A DNA stretch of 36,043 nt from a virus (lineage: Duplodnaviria > Heunggongvirae > Uroviricota > Caudoviricetes), in IMG/VR virus record IMGVR_UViG_2693429599_000012, positions 1-36,043 of that record; one strand, given 5' to 3'. The notes beneath the pieces are model-generated. The model had not been told where the DNA came from and made no database searches. It saw only the letters and a list, made by a program, of their open reading frames with translations. This document shows positions 721 to 35,516 of the stretch, piece after piece. Each line of letters begins with the position of its first letter. Within the stretch, counting starts at the first letter, position 1. The translations under genes and the position numbers were made by a program.

Positions 721-1019
721 GATTTGCCCTCGCGTGAAAAATATTTTCGATTATTTATAAAAAAGACTTGACAAAATCAAAAGGTACTGTTCCACGGGTG
801 AAATAAAGCGAGTTTTCGGCACCCCGGTATTTGATGTGCGTGTGAGATTTCAAAACAGGTGCAGTGCAGCCCACCAGCGCGGTCGCTACGCGACTATTAA
901 CACCAGCCAATCCCTTTCCCTGCCTCGATCTTTCCCTTCGTTATAAAGCGTTTTAGGCGCTCTCCTGAATGCGCAGATCAGATAAATAATTTTACGCAAA
1001 TTTAATGGAGGATAACCGG

Positions 1020-3291: not shown

Positions 3292-3474
3292 TCAGTAAAC
3301 CTCGGCGGTAATCTTTACTTTAATGTCATACTTCTTTAAGAGTTTATGAAAGGTTGATTTATCGATACCCTCATTTTTAAACCACTCTTCAATTCTCACA
3401 CCCGGCGTTAACTCAAAGTAGCGTTTAGCCATTTCTAAGATGATTTCGCGAGTGAACTTAACAGGTCGTGCCAT
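3292..3474 (-). CDS. Small HTH DNA-binding protein (60 aa), resolvase/Hin-type HTH-like
   Basis: Sequence MARPVKFTREIILEMAKRYF...GIDKSTFHKLLKKYDIKV; paralogous to the 6619-6852 product and to the C-terminus of the 6881-7483 product. Confidence 0.55.
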   Translation of the reverse strand: MARPVKFTREIILEMAKRYFELTPGVRIEEWFKNEGIDKSTFHKLLKKYDIKVKITAEVY

Positions 3475-3514
3475 CTCGAATCCTCCTACAATGTGGATTA
3501 ATGATTTCTTAAAA

Positions 3515-3529
3515 AAGAGCGTTAACCGC
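3515..3529. promoter_or_regulatory. Perfect palindrome GAGCGTTAACCGCTC upstream of the small HTH gene; candidate operator
   Basis: 5-bp inverted arms around TTAAC, about 40 bp upstream of the minus-strand start codon at 3474. Confidence 0.3.
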
Positions 3530-3993
3530 TCACTATTATTTATATGGGGATTGTATTTTATTTTTCAACCCCTCACATTTATCTCTTATATATGTATTTA
3601 TAACAGAGATATGTTAAAATGTTATTCAGATGTTATCAGACGTGTTAAATGTGTTAAACCGCAGCACGAATTGCTAAAGAGAAGAACACGAATTAACCAA
3701 ATTGATGTTTATTCAATCAATTTAGAAAAATGCATAGCACTTTTTGCTAAAGCGGTGAGCATTAATTGAGCTATGAATTGTAAAGATTTGTTACAAGATT
3801 TTCTCTCAGATCCAAATCTTAACAGACATATAACAATTTAACATGGTGATAACAATAGGAAGGAAAATCGGTAAATTTTCACTTTCAATACAAATATTAT
3901 AACATATTTATCTCGAATTGTCAAGTATACCACCGATCCTACACAGTGTCAACAAAGGATTTTCAAACCTACACTAACCCTACACTATGAAAA

Positions 3994-4233
3994 TTGCCCC
4001 CGAATTTTTGCCCCCGAACAAAATCCCCAAGATTCTACTATCCCATTTTTGCCCCTGAAACCCTATATTTTTGCCCCTGAAATTCTGGGACACGGTGATT
4101 TTGCCCCTCATTTTTGCCCCTGAAATGCCAATAATTGCCCCTGAAAATCTAATTTTTGCCCCTGAAATTTGCCCCCGAAAAGGATTGGTGAGAAAAACTC
4201 TTTATAAAACATTAACTTAGCGAGGGGCAAAAG
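3994..4233. repeat. Iteron-like array: 9 direct copies of TTGCCCC(T/C)GAA(A) plus one inverted copy
   Basis: Direct copies start at about 3994, 4008, 4049, 4071, 4101, 4114, 4135, 4156 and 4169; inverted copy GAGGGGCAAAAG at 4222-4233. Spacings are 13-14, 21-22, 30 and 41 bp. Confidence 0.8.
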
Positions 4234-4320
4234 CGGGGATCGGGCGTGCATAGATATTATATAACACATTCGCTACGCTCATGTGTAAAACCAAAAACAA
4301 CAAATAACCAAAAAGATATT

Positions 4321-4368
4321 AGGAGGGCGTAGCCCGACTGCGCGAAGCGCCAACCAATTACTTCTAGT
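4321..4368. repeat. Copy 1 of a duplicated ~45 bp element (GGAGG..CG.AGCC.GACTG ... CCAAT.ACTTC)
   Basis: AGGAGGGCGTAGCCCGACTG...CCAACCAATTACTTC, related to 4751-4795 (AGGAGGCGAAGCCGACTG...ACCAATCACTTCC). Confidence 0.5.
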
Positions 4369-4381
4369 AACACTAATTTAA

Positions 4382-4604
4382 ACTAGATGATACTAGATGG
4401 TCTTAGAAGGAATTAACTAGTTTGCTCGCTCGCTTCGCTCACTCTCAAACGTCTGCGACGCCACTGCGTGGCATCGAGAATCACTTTTGAAAGGATTTTC
4501 TTAGAAAGGGATTTTAAACTAGTTACTAACTGATTCTAGAAAGATAGTAATAATCACTTTGAAGATAATAGTAGTTAACTGGTTACTAGATGATTCTAGA
4601 TCAC
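4382..4604. repeat. CTAG-rich repeat family (ACTAGATGAT(A/T)CTAGA and ~27 bp units AACT(A/G)GTTACTA..TGATTCTAGA)
   Basis: ACTAGATGATACTAGATGG at 4382-4400; units at 4517-4543 and 4577-4604; palindromic AACTAGTT at 4414-4421. Confidence 0.6.
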
Positions 4605-4750
4605 TTTAATGATCATGAAAGGTATTGGTATCCCTTCGGGATTGCAACCTTCGGTTGCTAAATTGCTTCCTGATTATAATTTCTCCAAAAGAAAGATTCT
4701 TATATTCTAAAGATACTTCTTCGTTTTGATGATGATTTAATCAAAATCTA

Positions 4751-4795
4751 TGAAGGAGGCGAAGCCGACTGAATACCAATCACTTCCAAATTAGA
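4751..4795. repeat. Copy 2 of the duplicated ~45 bp element
   Basis: See 4321-4368; lies about 70 bp upstream of the 4863 gene. Confidence 0.5.
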
Positions 4796-4862
4796 CAAAA
4801 ATTTCTCGTTATAAATAATAGTGAACTTACTTTGATTCACTTTCTTTTAGAGGATTACCACT

Positions 4863-5315
4863 ATGATCAATACTAAAACTCCTTTCGTACTTCTGGGTCT
4901 GAACCATGATGATAATCTGGATATGATGCATGTTTTCGCTAATCGTGGTTATAACATCATTCGTCATTCCGAAGACTCCAATTTCTCAACTGCTTTCTAT
5001 GCTTTTAAACGTAATGGACGCCCTACGGTGATCGTAGACTGCTTTACTGATGAAGGTCGTGAACAATACAACAACATTCCGGCAATTATTGTTCGTGATG
5101 ACCTGCCTTTTGATGTTCGTGAATATGACGTTGATTTAGGCTCTTACTACGGGATCGCGGATCTTGACCAGATTATGGCTGATTATGGTAAACAACCCGC
5201 TCAGGAAGCCCCAGAACACGATGAACAAGACGAAGATGACGACGACTACACACCAATCTGTTTCTCTTCTCACGGTGGCTTCTACGGTTACGATGAAGGC
5301 TTAGATATGCTGTAA
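4863..5315 (+). CDS. Hypothetical acidic protein (150 aa)
   Basis: GAGGA RBS; C-terminal acidic run QEAPEHDEQDEDDDDY; first plus-strand gene after the repeat region. Confidence 0.55.
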   Translation: MINTKTPFVLLGLNHDDNLDMMHVFANRGYNIIRHSEDSNFSTAFYAFKRNGRPTVIVDCFTDEGREQYNNIPAIIVRDDLPFDVREYDVDLGSYYGIADLDQIMADYGKQPAQEAPEHDEQDEDDDDYTPICFSSHGGFYGYDEGLDML

Positions 5316-5337
5316 TTTAGGTCAACCCTTTGGCGTC

Positions 5338-5379
5338 TTGTCAAGGGGTATTGACAAAATTTTCTGACTTTTTTATGAT
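5338..5379 (+). promoter_or_regulatory. Sigma70-type promoter (TTGACA-N17-TATGAT) with overlapping perfect inverted repeat TTGTCAA-N6-TTGACAA
   Basis: -35 TTGACA at 5351-5356, 17-nt spacer, -10 TATGAT at 5374-5379; palindrome arms at 5338-5344 and 5351-5357. Confidence 0.6.
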
Positions 5380-5437
5380 TATCGCACTTGACAACTTTGA
5401 ACCTATTTGACCTAGATTTGTAAAGAGGATGTTAATT

Positions 5438-5584
5438 ATGAACACTACTAAGAAAGTTGATGGACGTAAAAACCCGAACCGCAAACCGTGGACCCCAAAC
5501 CTGAATTTCTCAATGGTTGACTTCCATGAACGCCAGCGTCGCATTCAAGAAGAAATTGATCGCGCGATTGCTGAATCTAAATGA
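5438..5584 (+). CDS. Small basic protein (48 aa), hypothetical
   Basis: AAGAGGA RBS 8 nt upstream of the ATG; sits between the promoter and the Rha gene. Not in the ORF track because it is under 60 aa. Confidence 0.4.
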   Translation: MNTTKKVDGRKNPNRKPWTPNLNFSMVDFHERQRRIQEEIDRAIAESK

Positions 5585-5672
5585 GATAAAAACTTCTTAT
5601 AAATAAAATTGTTCCGGTAGTGATGCCGGAACTAGGAGGATCATCACTAAACCGTTTAAGGGGGATTTTACT

Positions 5673-6500
5673 ATGAATACTGTTACTACTATGAATACCG
5701 CTGTTAAAACTGCTTCCGTGTCTCTGGTTGTTGATAACACCAAACCGCTGACCATGTCTTCTCGTCAGATTGCTGAATTTACCGATAAGAAGCACAGCAA
5801 TGTAATGCGCGATATTCGCGAAATGTACGAATCTTTAGGTATTATCGATCAGCTCAAAACTGAATTTGTCGAGAGAATCAATAACTTAGGATATGCTGTT
5901 AAAGAACCAGTATATCACTTAGACGAAGAAATGACGCTGACTCTTGTCACTGGTTACGATGTTAAGCGTCGAATGGTTGTTATTCAGGAATGGAAGCGAC
6001 TGAAAGAAGAAAATGAAAAACTGCGTCAGGAACGTTTAGCCGTTAACCCGTATGCAGACTTTGAAGAAACCGACTGGATCGAACTGGCATTAAAGAAAAC
6101 TCGCGAAAATAAAAAGCTGATTGAACTTCATGTTCGCAAATCAGTAGATAGCCATTCAATGACCCGTCTGTTAGGCGCTAAAAAGGGCGCTACGAAGGTT
6201 AAAGAAGCACTAACGGCCTTGCGTACTGCTGGCTACATTGAGCGCGTCTACGATGAAAATAACAAGCCGTGTGGGTATGTTGCTAATGACTCTTCTCTGT
6301 CTTTCTGCCGCATGAATGCTCACTACCAACTTGAATTTACTGTTGATGTTCTTCCTGTGTTGGTTGAATTGGGTATTCTGGAAGAAGAACAAAAAGCAAC
6401 TCTGAATCTTCCTAAGCCGAACAACACTATTCTGATTCAAAACAAAGCGGCTGAACGTCTCCGCCAGAATGTTGGATCACTGGAAGTCTTCGGACTGTGA
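5673..6500 (+). CDS. Rha-family phage regulatory protein / antirepressor
   Basis: N-terminal motif LTMSSRQIAEFTDKKHSNVMRDIREM is typical of the phage pRha domain; AGGGGGA RBS; terminator downstream. Confidence 0.75.
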   Translation: MNTVTTMNTAVKTASVSLVVDNTKPLTMSSRQIAEFTDKKHSNVMRDIREMYESLGIIDQLKTEFVERINNLGYAVKEPVYHLDEEMTLTLVTGYDVKRRMVVIQEWKRLKEENEKLRQERLAVNPYADFEETDWIELALKKTRENKKLIELHVRKSVDSHSMTRLLGAKKGATKVKEALTALRTAGYIERVYDENNKPCGYVANDSSLSFCRMNAHYQLEFTVDVLPVLVELGILEEEQKATLNLPKPNNTILIQNKAAERLRQNVGSLEVFGL

Positions 6501-6506
6501 TTAATC

Positions 6507-6537
6507 GCCCGGCGCATAATTGCGCTGGGCTTTTTGT
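6507..6537 (+). terminator. Rho-independent terminator after the Rha gene
   Basis: GCCCGGCGC-ataatt-GCGCTGGGC followed by TTTTTGTAT. Confidence 0.55.
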
Positions 6538-6618: not shown

Positions 6619-6852
6619 TCAAAAACCTGTTGCTTCTACGATCTGACCATCACCGATCTGAACATAGAATTTAATGTCTAACTTCTTCATATTCTTATAG
6701 AATTGGGCGATTGAGATCCCATGTTCACTAAGAATCTGTTCTTTCGCTTCCTTACCACGATCCGCTGTATAGTAAGCGTAGGCAATATCAGCCATCTGTT
6801 CAGCGTTAAAACGGGCAGGACGACCGCGAGTAGCTTTAGTAGTCATAGTCAT
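6619..6852 (-). CDS. Small HTH DNA-binding protein (77 aa), paralog of the 3292-3474 product
   Basis: RGRPARF motif plus HTH GISIAQFYKNMKKLDIKF aligning with GIDKSTFHKLLKKYDIKV. Confidence 0.55.
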   Translation of the reverse strand: MTMTTKATRGRPARFNAEQMADIAYAYYTADRGKEAKEQILSEHGISIAQFYKNMKKLDIKFYVQIGDGQIVEATGF

Positions 6853-6880: not shown

Positions 6881-7483
6881 TTATTTAGAGGACTTACATT
6901 TTATCGGAAAAAGTTCTCCATCGTCAATACTCATAAAGAACTCTGCCTTAATCCCGTACTTCTTCAACCGTGAATAGTATGTACCCCGACTTATATCAAC
7001 CTTGCGAAGCACTTCAAAGAACCCTTTAGGATCGTTGTAATAGTGGCTATAACGCACGTTAGCGAGTTCTACAAACAATTCCCTTGTATCACCATAGCCT
7101 TTCTTGAATGCCTCGTTACGATAGCGTGTAACAGCGTGATTCAATCTCTTCTGTTTCAACACTTCTCGGATCGGCTTCCATTGCAACCGATAGACCGGAC
7201 CGTCATCAATCCTGTAAAACCGCTTGATATCAAAATCAAACCAATCTCGGACTCTCTGGAACTCTGTATGTGATGTTCTATGCTTCTTAAAGAAGTTGTG
7301 AACGTCTGTATAACCATTATCGCGGTAAAACTCTATTAAAATCTCTTTCGCTTCCTCACGACTAAAGCCAGATGTTGTGTAGTCGGTTTTTAAATGCTTA
7401 TGCTTAACTGGTAAACGATATTCATGATCGGTACAAGACAAGGCTAATTCTAATTCATCTCTTTGTTGTTGATTAATTAGCAT
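6881..7483 (-). CDS. Hypothetical protein (200 aa) with C-terminal HTH of the same family
   Basis: C-terminal ISRGTYYSRLKKYGIK matches the HTH of the two small paralogs; N-terminal domain unassigned. Confidence 0.5.
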   Translation of the reverse strand: MLINQQQRDELELALSCTDHEYRLPVKHKHLKTDYTTSGFSREEAKEILIEFYRDNGYTDVHNFFKKHRTSHTEFQRVRDWFDFDIKRFYRIDDGPVYRLQWKPIREVLKQKRLNHAVTRYRNEAFKKGYGDTRELFVELANVRYSHYYNDPKGFFEVLRKVDISRGTYYSRLKKYGIKAEFFMSIDDGELFPIKCKSSK

Positions 7484-7570: not shown

Positions 7571-9475
7571 ATGAAACTAATTTCTAATAAGGCCAAATTA
7601 AAAAAGATTCTTAAAAATATCTCTGCTGCAATTCGACCGCCTAAAGCCATGAAACCTAGCGAATGGGTAGAGGCTAATGTAGTTGCTACCGATGGTGTTA
7701 AAGCCGGATCGCTAATTAAATTGCATCCCTTCCAACGTGGAATGATGGACGCGATCACCGAAGACCGTAGAAAAATTGTGTTTAAATGTTCGGCGCAGTT
7801 GGGTAAGACCATGATTCTTAACGGAATTATCTTCCATCGGATCGCGAGTAACCCTACTAATATTGGGGTCTTGCAAAGTAACGTTAGGGAACTAAATTCT
7901 TGGATCGCTGGTAAGGTGAAGCCAGTATTAGAGGCAACGCCAGAATTAAAAGCGATGATCACCGACAAATCAGATCGCAATGCCGTTAACAACTCATCGA
8001 TTATTCAGCTTCGTAACGGATCGTTTATGTATTTCATGTCGTTGAATAGTCCGTCACATCTTCGCGGTAAAACACTCCCTTTGATTATTCTTGATGAAGT
8101 TGATGCGGCTGATGAGTCAGACGAAGGGAACCCGATCCAGCTAGCGGAACAACGCGCAACCACTTTCGGGGAAGATGCAAGGATCGTAATTGCTTCCACT
8201 CCAACCGCTCGTGATGGGGCGATTAACCAACAATGGGAACTCTCGGATAAGAGAAAATATCATGTCGTTTGCCAGCATTGCGGACACAAGCACGTAATGG
8301 AATGGAGTAACGTACATTTCGATTGGCATACGATTAACGGTAAATCATTACCCAACCCAGATACAGCCGTTTACCGTTGCCCTGAATGTGAAACCGACTG
8401 GACCGAAGGGGATCGCCTCCGTGCTGTTGCTCAGGGAGAATGGGTCGCCACCGAACCTAATGCGGAAGTAATCGGTTTTCATGCTAACCGCCTTATGTCT
8501 CCGTTTAGTTCTATCCGTGCGTGTGTGGTGGACTTTGCTGATAGCTACGCGAATATGTCGCTGGCAACGTTCTATAATGTGGTGCTCGGTGAAACCTTCG
8601 ATGATCTTAACGAAGATCGCACAGCCGACGAACTGGAAACGCTGAAAACTGATATTAGCCTAGACAATATTCCTGATGATGTACTGGCTCTGGTAGGTGG
8701 AGTTGACCAGCAAAAAGACCGTCTGGAATCTACCTTGCTGGGTATCTCTCGTAAGGGGATATGCGTAGTTGATCACCGATCATTCTATGATGTGAACTGC
8801 GAACGCCACGAATCGCCAGCATATGACCAGCTTTATAACTTCCTGAAAGCGAAATTCTATACCCGATCCGGTGAACGAATCCCGATGCTATCTGCTTTCG
8901 TGGACTCATCGAACGGACGAGCTACAAACGTGATCTACCGTTTTTGCACTAGGTGGCAAAACCTATGCGCCATTAAAGGCGCAAGTAATGCTGATGCTCC
9001 AATCCTTCCGGCTAAGGACACAAGAACGGGTGGTTTTACCCTTAAAATTCTGGGCGTAAACAACCTTAAAACGATGATCCGTGAAATGATTAACCGGAAC
9101 TTGAGAGACAGCGATCCTCATACGGTCTTCCAGATTGGCGACGTTCCTGATGACTATTGCGAGCAATTGCTTTCTGAACAGTTGAAACGGCAGGGTAATA
9201 CCACACGTTGGGTAAAAGTTGGTCAGCAACGAAACGAGGCTCTCGACTGCCTGGCTTATTCCTATGCTGCTTCTCGCCATGTACTCAATAAAATGTCATG
9301 GGAAAAACTCGAAGCCATCAAAGATAGTTTGAACCGTGAACCAGAAGAATCCGTAGAAGCTCCTAAATCGCAATCTGACGAGAAAATAGAAGAAACTAAG
9401 CCAATCACACGACCACAACGTAAAAACATCGCCAGACGCCCAAATAGAGGCCGTAGCTGGGTAACATCGTTCTAA
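7571..9475 (+). CDS. Terminase large subunit (lambda GpA-like)
   Basis: Walker A-like KCSAQLGKT and Walker B-like LIILDEVD; HPFQRGMMDAI near the N-terminus; 634 aa; positioned upstream of the portal gene. Confidence 0.85.
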   Translation: MKLISNKAKLKKILKNISAAIRPPKAMKPSEWVEANVVATDGVKAGSLIKLHPFQRGMMDAITEDRRKIVFKCSAQLGKTMILNGIIFHRIASNPTNIGVLQSNVRELNSWIAGKVKPVLEATPELKAMITDKSDRNAVNNSSIIQLRNGSFMYFMSLNSPSHLRGKTLPLIILDEVDAADESDEGNPIQLAEQRATTFGEDARIVIASTPTARDGAINQQWELSDKRKYHVVCQHCGHKHVMEWSNVHFDWHTINGKSLPNPDTAVYRCPECETDWTEGDRLRAVAQGEWVATEPNAEVIGFHANRLMSPFSSIRACVVDFADSYANMSLATFYNVVLGETFDDLNEDRTADELETLKTDISLDNIPDDVLALVGGVDQQKDRLESTLLGISRKGICVVDHRSFYDVNCERHESPAYDQLYNFLKAKFYTRSGERIPMLSAFVDSSNGRATNVIYRFCTRWQNLCAIKGASNADAPILPAKDTRTGGFTLKILGVNNLKTMIREMINRNLRDSDPHTVFQIGDVPDDYCEQLLSEQLKRQGNTTRWVKVGQQRNEALDCLAYSYAASRHVLNKMSWEKLEAIKDSLNREPEESVEAPKSQSDEKIEETKPITRPQRKNIARRPNRGRSWVTSF

Positions 9476-32282: not shown

Positions 32283-33281
32283 ATGAATACTACTTTAGCA
32301 AAGGATATCGAATTTACCGCAAAAAGCAAACGTGCGACCCCTCCGGTCGAATATGAAACCAGAATCATTAAAGTTTGTCAAGCGTATGGATGGTTATACA
32401 GTGGTTTTGTGCTTCCTGTAAAGAAACCATTCCAGAACACCAAAGTTTGCATAGAAGTTAACGGAAAGGTTAAAACGCCATGTATTAGTCATGTTCTAAC
32501 TGGTCAGTTTACTGGCAAAGATAGAGTATCACCGCCTAAGAAGAAGTTTAGATTTACCGAAGAAGAACACTTAGAAAACGCTCGCAAGTTCTACAAGCCG
32601 ATAGGGTGGGATGTGTTAGGTCTGGCTGAACCTTATCAGGGTGTTGACACTAAACTAATTCTTCGTTGTAAGTGCCACGGAAAGATTCACAAGAAAGGTG
32701 ATTTACACAATAACCGCAGACAAGGCGGGTTAACATGCCCTTTGGTTAGGGGTGTACTTAAATCAATTCAGAATGGTAGAAAACAGGTTATCAGAAACAA
32801 GTTTGCACAGCGCCCTATGCACTTTTATCTAATTCGTGTTGGCGAGAAGTTTTTCAAATATGGAATTACCACTCGCAAAGATCCGATGCAACGGGTAAGA
32901 GAACACCAGAAGCACACCAGCGAGAAAATCACCTTTGAATGCTCACATTTGTTTAACATTGGATGGAAAGCTGGTGATTTAGAAATGGGGATTAAAAAGA
33001 ATATTCAGGGCAAGAAAATCCCACGTAAGGTAATGAATAGCGGATTCACAGAAACGCTACCGATTAGCAAGCTGAAAGATGTTAAATCATTCATCAATGA
33101 ATACATCCACACCAACCCATCTAAGCCAATGTATTTTGATGATACCAACGCAATCAATCTGAACAACTACATTAGTGATGAAGACATAGAACGAGATTTA
33201 TCGCAGTGGATGAATGCACCGTTAGCTGATTTAACACCGGAAAACTTAGAACTCGATTTAAGCCCTTTAGAGGCTCTCTAA
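32283..33281 (+). CDS. GIY-YIG / T5orf172-like domain protein (homing-endonuclease-like), paralog of the 31173-31754 product
   Basis: GAGGA RBS before the ATG at 32283 (ORF track extends upstream to 32142). FYLIRVGEKFFKYGIT...GFTETL aligns with YVMRCGDVGKVGVS...GATETF; Cys/His cluster RCKCHGKIHKKGDLHNNRRQGGLTCP. Confidence 0.5.
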   Translation: MNTTLAKDIEFTAKSKRATPPVEYETRIIKVCQAYGWLYSGFVLPVKKPFQNTKVCIEVNGKVKTPCISHVLTGQFTGKDRVSPPKKKFRFTEEEHLENARKFYKPIGWDVLGLAEPYQGVDTKLILRCKCHGKIHKKGDLHNNRRQGGLTCPLVRGVLKSIQNGRKQVIRNKFAQRPMHFYLIRVGEKFFKYGITTRKDPMQRVREHQKHTSEKITFECSHLFNIGWKAGDLEMGIKKNIQGKKIPRKVMNSGFTETLPISKLKDVKSFINEYIHTNPSKPMYFDDTNAINLNNYISDEDIERDLSQWMNAPLADLTPENLELDLSPLEAL

Positions 33282-35099: not shown

Positions 35100-35345
35100 T
35101 TAATATTTCTTTCCAGTTAGTTTTGCATCACGTTTATTAATATCCTCGATATGACTCCATACACACGCAGTAATAAAGTCGTCATCGTCACCAACTCCGG
35201 CAACCTGTGCTAATTCAGTACACAGTTGATTTAAAGAAGGTGCAACGGCAGCACGTTTGACACTATCACCCTGTACATATTGTTCGGCATTCGCAGCACC
35301 AACCAAACCCAGAGCAAGAACAACACCCGCGATAATCTTTTTCAT
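35100..35345 (-). CDS. Small secreted protein (81 aa) with Sec-type signal peptide
   Basis: AAGAGGA RBS; MKKIIAGVVLALGLVGAANA then AEQ (signal peptidase I-like site, no lipobox); mature ~61 aa with two Cys and a DDDD run. Confidence 0.6.
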   Translation of the reverse strand: MKKIIAGVVLALGLVGAANAEQYVQGDSVKRAAVAPSLNQLCTELAQVAGVGDDDDFITACVWSHIEDINKRDAKLTGKKY

Positions 35346-35390
35346 AGTAGAATTTCCTCTTGTTATTTGAATTACGATATATTTATATCG

Positions 35391-35516
35391 TTAAAAGTTA
35401 ATACTAATAATCAGACCAAACACAACCGCGCCAATCAAATCCATCCAGTTAATACACAATCCGCTATATTCTTTCTTGAATGTCTTAGATGAAATGCCAT
35501 CATGAAATTGTTTCAT
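35391..35516 (-). CDS. Tiny hydrophobic peptide ORF (41 aa)
   Basis: MKQFHDGISSKTFKKEYSGLCINWMDLIGAVVFGLIISINF; weak SD-like GGGGTGAG upstream. Below the ORF track cutoff. Confidence 0.3.
   Translation of the reverse strand: MKQFHDGISSKTFKKEYSGLCINWMDLIGAVVFGLIISINF

Follow-up and report, generated by a model that had tools for sequence, protein, structure and literature searches.

In the immI region of phage P22 (Pant -> arc -> ant), a strong σ70 promoter is overlapped by operators and is followed by a tiny first gene and then by an antirepressor-type gene. In T4-type phages, PeSL elements consist of a stem-loop abutting a strong early-type σ70 promoter and are located at the borders of exchangeable genes. 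Here, we analyzed a promoter with features of both, designated P_rha, at positions 5351 to 5379 of a 36,043-nucleotide (nt) tailed-phage DNA (IMG/VR record IMGVR_UViG_2693429599_000012, positions 1 to 36,043). The whole of this DNA, referred to as the window, is an Escherichia coli prophage. P_rha precedes a small open reading frame (ORF), p48, and a Rha-family gene, and it is accompanied by several copies of the heptamer TTGACAA. In the explanation that we tentatively favor, P_rha would be a conserved "stem-loop plus strong σ70 promoter" cassette at a mosaic junction of a prophage family, with a local regulator acting at the TTGACAA elements.

As in P22 immI, a small first gene and then a larger regulatory gene are located behind a strong promoter. 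Unlike in immI, no ribbon-helix-helix family matched the first gene product, and the gene is swapped for p110 or p59 while the promoter remains constant. In addition, the N-terminal domain of Rha was the sole domain detected for the second gene, neither an Ant nor a KilAC domain was found, and there is no divergent mnt-like gene. The likeness to PeSL elements is that a stem-loop adjoins the promoter and that the unit is conserved beside exchangeable genes. However, the phage type and the sequence differ, extra conserved TTGACAA copies are present, and the cassette is known here from its sequence, with no mobility implied. Divergent promoters of the lambda PR/PRM type also have two opposed -35 hexamers a few base pairs apart, but P_rha has no leftward -10 hexamer, and its leftward side is a gene coding on the other strand.

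For the C repressors of P2-type phages (P2, P2 Hy dis, and W-phi), half-sites are direct repeats that lie 22 to 34 bp apart (center to center) and flank the -10 or -35 region (PMC1904268). A similar arrangement is found here, where two identical TTGACAA copies are 36 to 37 bp apart, at -35 and +3. In contrast to the P2-type operators, the -35 hexamer itself makes up one of the repeats, there is a third, inverted copy upstream, and no P2 C-like protein was detected. P_rha can also be likened to the LexA-controlled antirepressor genes (those of Gifsy prophages and tum of coliphage 186), in that induction of a prophage lacking a cleavable CI-type repressor could proceed through a tightly repressed antirepressor promoter (PMC3121763). 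Unlike these genes, P_rha has no LexA box (CTGT-N8-ACAG) in or near it, and control by LexA was rejected, as none was found in the regulatory regions. The sole perfect LexA-box core in the window, CTGTTAAAGAAAACAG, is at 2711-2726 inside the conserved p334 gene and is probably a chance match, about 0.5 being expected in the window.

A strong promoter in a cluster of TTGAC hexamers

The original prediction described a perfect TTGTCAA-N6-TTGACAA palindrome overlapping a near-consensus promoter, and direct reading of the DNA confirmed both. On the plus strand, the left arm TTGTCAA (5338-5344) and the right arm TTGACAA (5351-5357) are separated by the spacer GGGGTA (5345-5350), which is variable in sequence and 6 or 7 nt long among relatives. 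The first six bases of the right arm (5351-5356) form the -35 hexamer, which a 17-nt spacer separates from the -10 hexamer TATGAT (5374-5379). TTGACA-N17-TATGAT scored 11/12 in a consensus scan (6/6 for the -35 and 5/6 for the -10), and the start was predicted at about 5386. With A5386 as the start, the left arm occupies -48 to -42. A third TTGACAA follows at 5388-5394 on the plus strand (+3 to +9), 37 nt start to start from the -35 copy; by direct reading, it is part of the 8-mer CTTGACAA at 5387-5394. Two related hexamers are located further out. GGTCAA (5320-5325; TTGACC on the minus strand) lies 19 nt from the left arm, and TTGACC (5407-5412, plus strand), which is limited to the E. coli subfamily, lies 19 nt from the third TTGACAA.

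The geometry of these elements can be seen directly. Five TTGAC[AC] hexamers occur within 93 nt (Poisson p ~5e-8). TTGAC-N14-TTGAC has two matches in the window, at 5321-5344 (minus strand) and 5388-5411 (plus strand), which are mirror images about the core promoter; the predicted palindrome thus consists of the inner left hexamer and the -35. Inverted repeats that are perfect over 7 bp and have 4- to 8-nt spacers were found 25 times in the window, versus about 16 in first-order Markov simulations, so the palindrome alone is not improbable. The improbable feature is the local hexamer cluster, not the palindrome.

The σ70-type promoter at 5351-5379 is very probably real, since relatives in both E. 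coli and Salmonella have retained it and since a small ORF and a Rha-family gene follow it. Several other roles for the surrounding elements were considered and rejected. The extra hexamers do not serve as the -35 elements of second rightward or leftward promoters, since no -10 was found at 16 to 18 nt on either strand. The nearest -10 options lie at 19 nt only (TAGATT after the +3 element and TAACTT/TAAATT leftward), and neither is present in Salmonella. An invertible promoter switch bounded by inverted repeats does not fit, as just 43 bp separate the repeats and none of 36 variants has the opposite orientation. The palindrome contains TGT-N12-ACA, but its center is near -38.5, and the -35 matches the consensus. 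A late promoter of the P2 Ogr/P4 Delta type needs a dyad near -55, a poor -35, and an Ogr-type zinc-finger activator; the first two are not found here, and no Ogr-like protein was found in family scans of the window proteins. The "stoperator" of cluster A mycobacteriophages is a 13-bp asymmetric site with the consensus GGTGGMTGTCAAG. Here only TGTCAAG matched it, while the preceding GCGTCT matched at one of six positions.

Conservation of the promoter elements among relatives

The region around the promoter is mosaic, and its most conserved island spans 5180-5435 (conservation profile). Family members were collected through a motif downstream of the promoter, and the palindrome was not a selection criterion. 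The E. coli/Shigella-type set comprised 36 distinct intergenic variants, aligned over 119 columns, of which 51 were variable. No column varied in GGTCAA (0/6), in the -10 hexamer (0/6), or in the outer TTGACC (0/6); TTGACC belonged to the search pattern, so its invariance in this set is to be discounted as partly a selection effect. One of the seven columns of the left arm varied (first base, T to C), as did one of seven in the second TTGACAA at +3 and two of seven in the right arm; one variant had TTGGCAA and one had TTGACAG. The -35 and -10 hexamers were read as constant across the 36 variants. Variation was frequent in the palindrome spacer (6/8), the promoter spacer (10/17), the left linker (7/12), and the right linker (9/12). 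Thus, 4/39 columns varied in the six elements versus 47/80 elsewhere (Fisher p = 4e-7), and 2/20 columns varied in the three elements outside the core promoter (p = 1e-4). In the most distant E. coli-type relative (L189; p150 44% identical), every hexamer was kept while the linkers changed; the 12-nt linker before TTGACC had changed at 8/12 positions with its length unaltered. The arms were separated by N7 instead of N6 in 4/36 E. coli variants and in the Salmonella relatives L193, L194, and L205, and the promoter spacer ranged from 16 to 18 nt among relatives.

In the Salmonella relatives compared, p200 was 48 to 74% identical, Rha was about 55% identical, and the intergenic region had diverged. 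These relatives retained (T/C)TGTCAA, GGGG(G)T(A/GT), and TTGACAA in this order, with TGTCAA and TTGACAA invariant. Their -10 hexamer was TAACAT, TAGCAT, or TATCAT, preceded by TGn and located 17 to 18 nt from the -35. The second TTGACAA was found 36 to 37 nt from the -35 copy in all of them despite diverged flanks. GGTCAA was kept in two of the three Salmonella types (L205 and L208, not L193). A more distant relative without rha (L207) had TTGACA-N17-TAGTAT at the same place, with no left arm and no +3 element. Since both Salmonella and L207 have it, the promoter is old in this lineage, and the extra TTGACAA copies, as far as these alignments show, go with the rha-bearing versions.

These results also bear on whether the palindrome has a function at all. 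The segment 5180-5435 could be a recombination linker at a module boundary, or could have spread recently, with the symmetry arising by coincidence from a -35 beside a hairpin. It is indeed conserved where its flanks are mosaic, the change of cargo falls right at the start codon, and 7-bp inverted repeats are expected by chance. However, variation inside the island avoids the hexamers, and the elements persist in Salmonella although other intergenic sequence has diverged. A functionless palindrome is therefore considered very unlikely.

A stem-loop overlaps the palindrome

A stronger dyad overlaps the left arm and the palindrome spacer. On the plus strand, ACCCTTTG (5325-5332) can pair with CAAGGGGT (5342-5349), forming a stem-loop directly 3' of the p150 stop codon. 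This dyad was the minimum-free-energy structure (-14.8 kcal/mol; z = -3.1), while the palindrome reached -6 kcal/mol. The Salmonella counterpart was a perfect 8-bp stem, ACCCCTTG-N9-CAAGGGGT (-14.6 kcal/mol), or ACCCCC-TGTCAA-GGGGGT. Across the variants, the stem-loop 5325-5349 (H1) was 93% paired with one compensatory pair, and 120/500 shuffles matched this or did better. The palindrome, treated as RNA, was 98.7% paired with no compensatory pair, and 500/500 shuffles matched it. Covariation thus speaks neither for nor against either hairpin. The stem is followed by AUUGACAAAA rather than a U-tract, and the site was absent from the terminator scan; it is not a canonical terminator because the U-tract is missing. 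The leader RNA showed no significant structure (z = -0.9 and +0.8), which favors a DNA-level role for the +3 element.

With this stem-loop, P_rha could also be read as an unregulated constitutive cassette of the "moron" type, always on in the lysogen and with no dedicated repressor. The left arm would then be kept as part of a stem-loop that stabilizes or ends the p150 message, and the +3 copy would be kept for promoter escape, the 5' end, or translation. Such a reading fits the self-contained unit, which has its own promoter and terminator and exchangeable cargo, as well as a hairpin that is equally stable in E. coli and Salmonella. It also agrees with the failure to find a repressor gene in scans of the window proteins, and with the generic nature of the "stem-loop then TATTGACA" context in phage promoters (see below). 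Nevertheless, the left arm's TGT falls within the loop of the hairpin and yet is invariant across genera, and spacer variants that weaken the hairpin (GGTATA and GGAGTA) are tolerated. The absence of a U-tract and the unstructured leader argue in the same direction. In addition, the 7-mer at +3 is identical to the -35 copy and is held at a fixed distance of 36 to 37 nt from it. On this evidence, a constitutive cassette is possible but unlikely.

The same layout in unrelated phages and bacteria

TTGTCAA-N6/7-TTGACAA-N15/16-TATGAT had more than 120 unrelated matches in very diverse bacteria, mostly Clostridia, and none came from the prophage family. The palindrome-plus-promoter layout is thus generic. 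The exact 18-/19-mer TGTCAAGGGG(G)TATTGACA was found in at least 11 unrelated phage contigs of 28 to 60% GC, and no protein family was common to the neighborhoods of the unrelated contigs with the 18-mer. The proposal that the 18-mer recurs far beyond chance was rejected, as an internal control gave about 10-fold enrichment, not orders of magnitude. The 15-mer CAAGGGGTATTGACA occurred in 65 unrelated contexts, half of them with a -10 at the right distance and several with a CCCC-N4-GGGG mini-hairpin just upstream. Both CAAGGGGTATTGACA and the longer TGTCAAGGGG(G)TATTGACA recurred as promoter upstream contexts (L034, L042, L043, L196-L204, and L220-L295), and one 414-kb contig carried five copies, each followed by TATAAT or TATACT. 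As judged from these contexts, the recurrence points to a "stem-loop then TATTGACA" promoter context and not to a family-specific operator.

In the unrelated phage contigs, the 18- to 20-mer is usually the core of two divergent promoters, with -10 hexamers on both sides in L034, L042, L043, L196, L197, L201, and L202. The spacer GGGGTA accounted for 6/14 distinct matches versus 0.9 expected per spacer (p = 1e-4; 16 spacers of similar composition). Both results suit the idea that the palindrome at P_rha is a relic or weak remnant of back-to-back divergent promoters. The left TTGACA (minus strand) would then be the former -35 of a leftward promoter, from which some weak antisense transcription into p150 may persist. 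However, no acceptable leftward -10 is present at 16 to 18 nt in E. coli or Salmonella, and the leftward transcript would be antisense to a coding gene. The invariance across genera would also be unexpected for a relic. We therefore find this reading highly doubtful.

No support for a regulon from the recurring 8-mer

According to the original prediction, the half-site recurs in several regions, all intergenic, which would suggest that one regulator controls these loci. The 8-mer TTGTCAAG/CTTGACAA has five copies in the window, at 767-774, 3918-3925, 5338-5345, 5387-5394, and 32375-32382. The predicted copies at 767-774 and 5387-5394 were found again; the one assigned to 3926-3933 was misplaced and is actually at 3918-3925. 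The copy at 32375-32382 is inside a coding region, so the recurrences are not all intergenic. Across the window, the 8-mer was marginally enriched (5 copies versus 1.8 expected, with 3/100 shuffles reaching 5), but the 7-mer was not (10 copies versus 8.1 expected).

The contexts of these copies do not bear out a common regulator. The copy at 3918-3925 (minus strand) is the -35 of a 12/12 promoter (3924..3896) arranged in tandem with a second, 11/12 promoter (3952..3924). In relatives it drifts to TTTTCAAG, TTGTCAAT, or TCGTCAAG, as a plain -35 would. The copy at 767-774 (plus strand) follows an A-tract, opens a block of some 80 invariant nt near the prophage's left end, and lacks a -10 at 16 to 18 nt; it is uninformative because it lies inside this block. 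No second half-site adjoins the 767 or the 3918 copy. Judging by these surroundings, the 8-mer copies elsewhere appear to be mostly -35 boxes of other promoters, not a regulon.

The idea of an "obvious operator" implies a classical site of the dimeric helix-turn-helix (HTH) type, TTGTCAA-N6-TTGACAA, with the same protein binding at 767, 3918, and 5387 through TTGTCAAG. In its favor, a perfect inverted repeat overlaps the -35, its arms have been conserved although its spacer has drifted, and the 8-mer is mildly enriched. On the other hand, a half-site spacing of either 6 or 7 nt is unusual for a rigid dimer operator, one arm is the -35 itself, the hairpin overlaps the site, and 7-bp repeats are common by chance. 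The lack of half-sites beside 767 and 3918, the plain and nonconserved -35 at 3918, the coding copy, and the unenriched 7-mer also speak against it, as does the absence of a cognate CI/Cro/XRE-type repressor gene in the element. A classical dimeric operator thus has little to recommend it, and the claim of an operator is plausible only if it is modified and kept local.

A candidate regulator at P_rha

In the model that we tentatively prefer, a local form of regulation would operate as follows. The σ70 RNA polymerase would use the -35 and -10 hexamers described above and start near 5386. The transcript would span the exchangeable small first gene (here p48) and the Rha-family gene and would end at 6507-6530, while the GC-rich hairpin just upstream (5325-5349) would close the p150 message. 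Three deeply conserved TTGACAA elements, one inverted at -48 to -42, one forming the -35 itself, and one direct at +3 to +9, would be contacts for a phage-encoded DNA-binding protein. The E. coli subfamily would add the outer GGTCAA and TTGACC, 19 nt away on each side. Binding would cover the -35 and the start site, and the promoter would be shut. What we infer here is that the promoter is active, that it is repressed, and which protein binds it, while the sequence elements and their conservation are directly seen. A DNA-binding regulator is the best single explanation because no other promoter includes the extra copies, the leader is unstructured, and the +3 copy is conserved across genera at a constant distance from the -35.

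The best candidate binders would be p200 (6881-7483, minus strand) or two paralogues with a single domain each, p77 (6619-6852, minus strand) and hth60 (3292-3474, minus strand). p200 consists of two tandem copies of a domain of about 60 amino acids (aa), and p77 and hth60 have one copy each. It is 88 to 100% conserved within the E. coli family. In the predicted structure of p200, two modules of three helices plus a β-hairpin were found (pLDDT 75). The domain had no Pfam or PDB match; fold matches of p200 were below significance, though they were to HTH domains. The roughly 60-aa domain is previously undescribed and is also conserved in Salmonella and Proteus relatives. p200 is thus a candidate binder by inference.

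Several observations weigh against a local regulator. No recognizable repressor family was found among the window proteins (Pfam, PHROG, and NCBIfam). The hairpin accounts in part for the conserved left arm, because the CAA of this arm lies in the hairpin stem. The 18- to 20-mer occurs in unrelated phages without a shared neighbor, so the palindrome core can arise without a dedicated regulator. In Salmonella, the outer TTGACC is absent and the outer hexamers are not kept. The arm-to--35 spacing of 6 or 7 nt and the promoter spacer of 16 to 18 nt vary with no compensating change; therefore, any multisite complex must tolerate 1-bp shifts. Finally, the column counts given above are nonindependent because the family sequences are closely related.

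A more far-reaching version would make the three TTGACAA copies, together with the outer TTGACC in E. coli, the operator set of an unrecognized kind of immunity regulator, for which p200 or its paralogues p77 and hth60 would be candidates, with P_rha deciding induction through a Rha-type antirepressor. Such a regulator would recognize a sequence identical to the -35 box and so would compete directly with σ region 4. We consider this version improbable. A strong promoter with repeated -35-like sequences nearby is ordinary in phage genomes, and conserved phage promoters with repeated sites are already known. If the model of a local regulator is true, P_rha would be an entry point into the regulation of an uncharacterized prophage family.

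Genes around the promoter

The p150 gene (4863-5315, plus strand) encodes 150 aa with an acidic C terminus, and its last ~130 nt lie in the conserved island. Upstream of the island, the protein identity of p150 falls to 55%. Searches of Pfam, PHROG, and NCBIfam gave no match for p150, and its family was seen only in E. coli and Shigella. In one relative (L010), a deletion fuses p150 to a p59-type gene and removes the promoter.

The first gene of the predicted operon, p48 (5438-5584, plus strand), encodes a basic protein of 48 aa (pI 10.2) and is preceded at 8 nt by the Shine-Dalgarno sequence AGAGGA (5424-5429). This first gene is exchangeable: p48/p50, the unrelated p110/p107, or p59 is found in sister prophages behind an unchanged promoter, and the cargo switch falls exactly at the start codon. 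The p48 motif KPWTPNLNF..MVDFHERQRR is conserved in E. coli, in L207, and partly in Salmonella. No Pfam family was found for p48, and there was no ribbon-helix-helix match even at E <= 1. An Arc-like autorepressor role for p48 is unlikely, given this negative result and the interchangeability of the gene.

The Rha-family gene (5673-6500, plus strand) encodes 275 aa and matched Pfam Phage_pRha (E = 3e-12), while the match to TIGR02681 was below its cutoff. The protein is mosaic, with at least four N-terminal alleles and two C-terminal alleles. Only the Phage_pRha N-terminal domain was detected, and distant phage homologues (28 to 40% identity) are annotated "anti-repressor." Rha is unlikely to bind P_rha or to be autoregulated, because its N-terminal DNA-binding domain differs between alleles and the promoter does not.

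The earlier proposal that the promoter drives the 48-aa basic ORF and a Rha antirepressor was borne out in its layout: both genes lie downstream, and no plus-strand terminator was found between the promoter and rha in the terminator scan. The term "antirepressor," however, comes only from the annotation of distant homologues. A conserved hairpin, GTTCCGG-N8-CCGGAAC (5611-5632), is located between p48 and rha with TTATAAATAAAATTG before it, and it is terminator-like on the minus strand only. An intrinsic terminator at 6507-6530 (plus strand; a 10-bp stem with 8 GC pairs, followed by TTTTTGT) closes the p48-rha unit. The unit at 5438-6500 is an exchange hot spot (loci L001-L026, L193, and L205-L208), and the region illustrates clearly how a conserved promoter cassette can be placed at a cargo-swapping junction.

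The prophage family

The window has a GC content of 41%, versus 51% for the host, and the prophages of this family are about 38 kb in size (for example, L171, 2351-40262). The family encodes a large serine recombinase, and its module of gpA terminase, portal, and capsid genes is lambda-like. It was present in 58/5,426 complete E. coli genomes (about 1%), and at least 26 IMG/VR contigs carried the same element. In the complete genomes, it was integrated inside ycdX or adjoining hicAB. Shigella and Salmonella also host members of the family; the Salmonella relatives have an identical gene order, and Proteus relatives show partial synteny.

No close relative of the window was found in the collections of deposited phages and plasmids, and a p150 query against genome contigs found no relative. 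Scans of the window for Rfam families and tRNAs were negative. CI/Cro-type repressor genes and replication genes were not recognizable among the window proteins (Pfam, PHROGs, and NCBIfam), and no CI/Cro/XRE-type repressor was annotated in a complete prophage copy. An antitermination gene was also not recognizable in the family. Nothing specific to the family was found in the literature, and it is a little-studied E. coli/Shigella/Salmonella lineage.

The whole regulatory region is located between a small-terminase-like gene (1005-1574; PHROG 57, E = 4e-14) and the gpA-type large terminase gene (7571-9475), which are 6 kb apart. The invariant block at the left end (760-845) starts with AAAAAAGACTTGACAAAATC and separates a variable cargo gene, on its upstream side, from the small-terminase-like gene. 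From about 800 to 920, the sequence is GC-rich and appears structured. The block could be cos related or a noncanonical promoter.

Other intergenic features

A noncoding region of 1.4 kb (3475-4862) precedes p150. At 3896-3952 on the minus strand, the two tandem near-perfect σ70 promoters mentioned above (12/12 and 11/12), both with TGn, point leftward into about 380 nt of noncoding DNA (3517-3896). This stretch ends at a terminator (3531..3517, minus strand) just before hth60. Its product may be an abundant noncoding RNA, possibly related to immunity. Pairing in trans between this minus-strand transcript and the leader was considered and rejected, as no matching direct repeat was found. CCTACAC occurs three times (3938-3944, 3968-3974, and 3979-3985) just upstream of the tandem promoters.

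Further into the same noncoding region, about 9 to 10 iteron-like repeats, (T)TTTTGCCCC(T/C)GAAA, are found at 3985-4185 with irregular spacing (13 to 43 nt). The array is conserved in a Salmonella relative, in which a spurious ORF over it is 68% identical. It could be a replication origin, a partition site, or a packaging site. Direct repeats, AACTAGTTACTAACTGATTCTAGA and ACTAGATGAT(A/T)CTAGAT, are located at 4381-4407, 4517-4540, and 4577-4600, and GC-rich dyads are located at 4336-4349/4431-4444 and 4620-4660.

The 15-mer TATAAATAATAGTGA is present at 3530-3544 and, perfectly inverted, 1.27 kb away at 4810-4824; the similar copy TTATAAATAAAATTG is at 5597-5611, upstream of rha. Each of these copies adjoins a hairpin and precedes a gene (hth60, p150, or rha). 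Possible roles are promoters that have just a -10 and a 5' stem-loop, or terminators that point away from the gene. At the right end of the window, a perfect intergenic palindrome, ACGATAT-N4-ATATCGT (35374-35391), lies upstream of a gene for an 81-aa secreted protein (35100-35345, minus strand) and could be an operator candidate.

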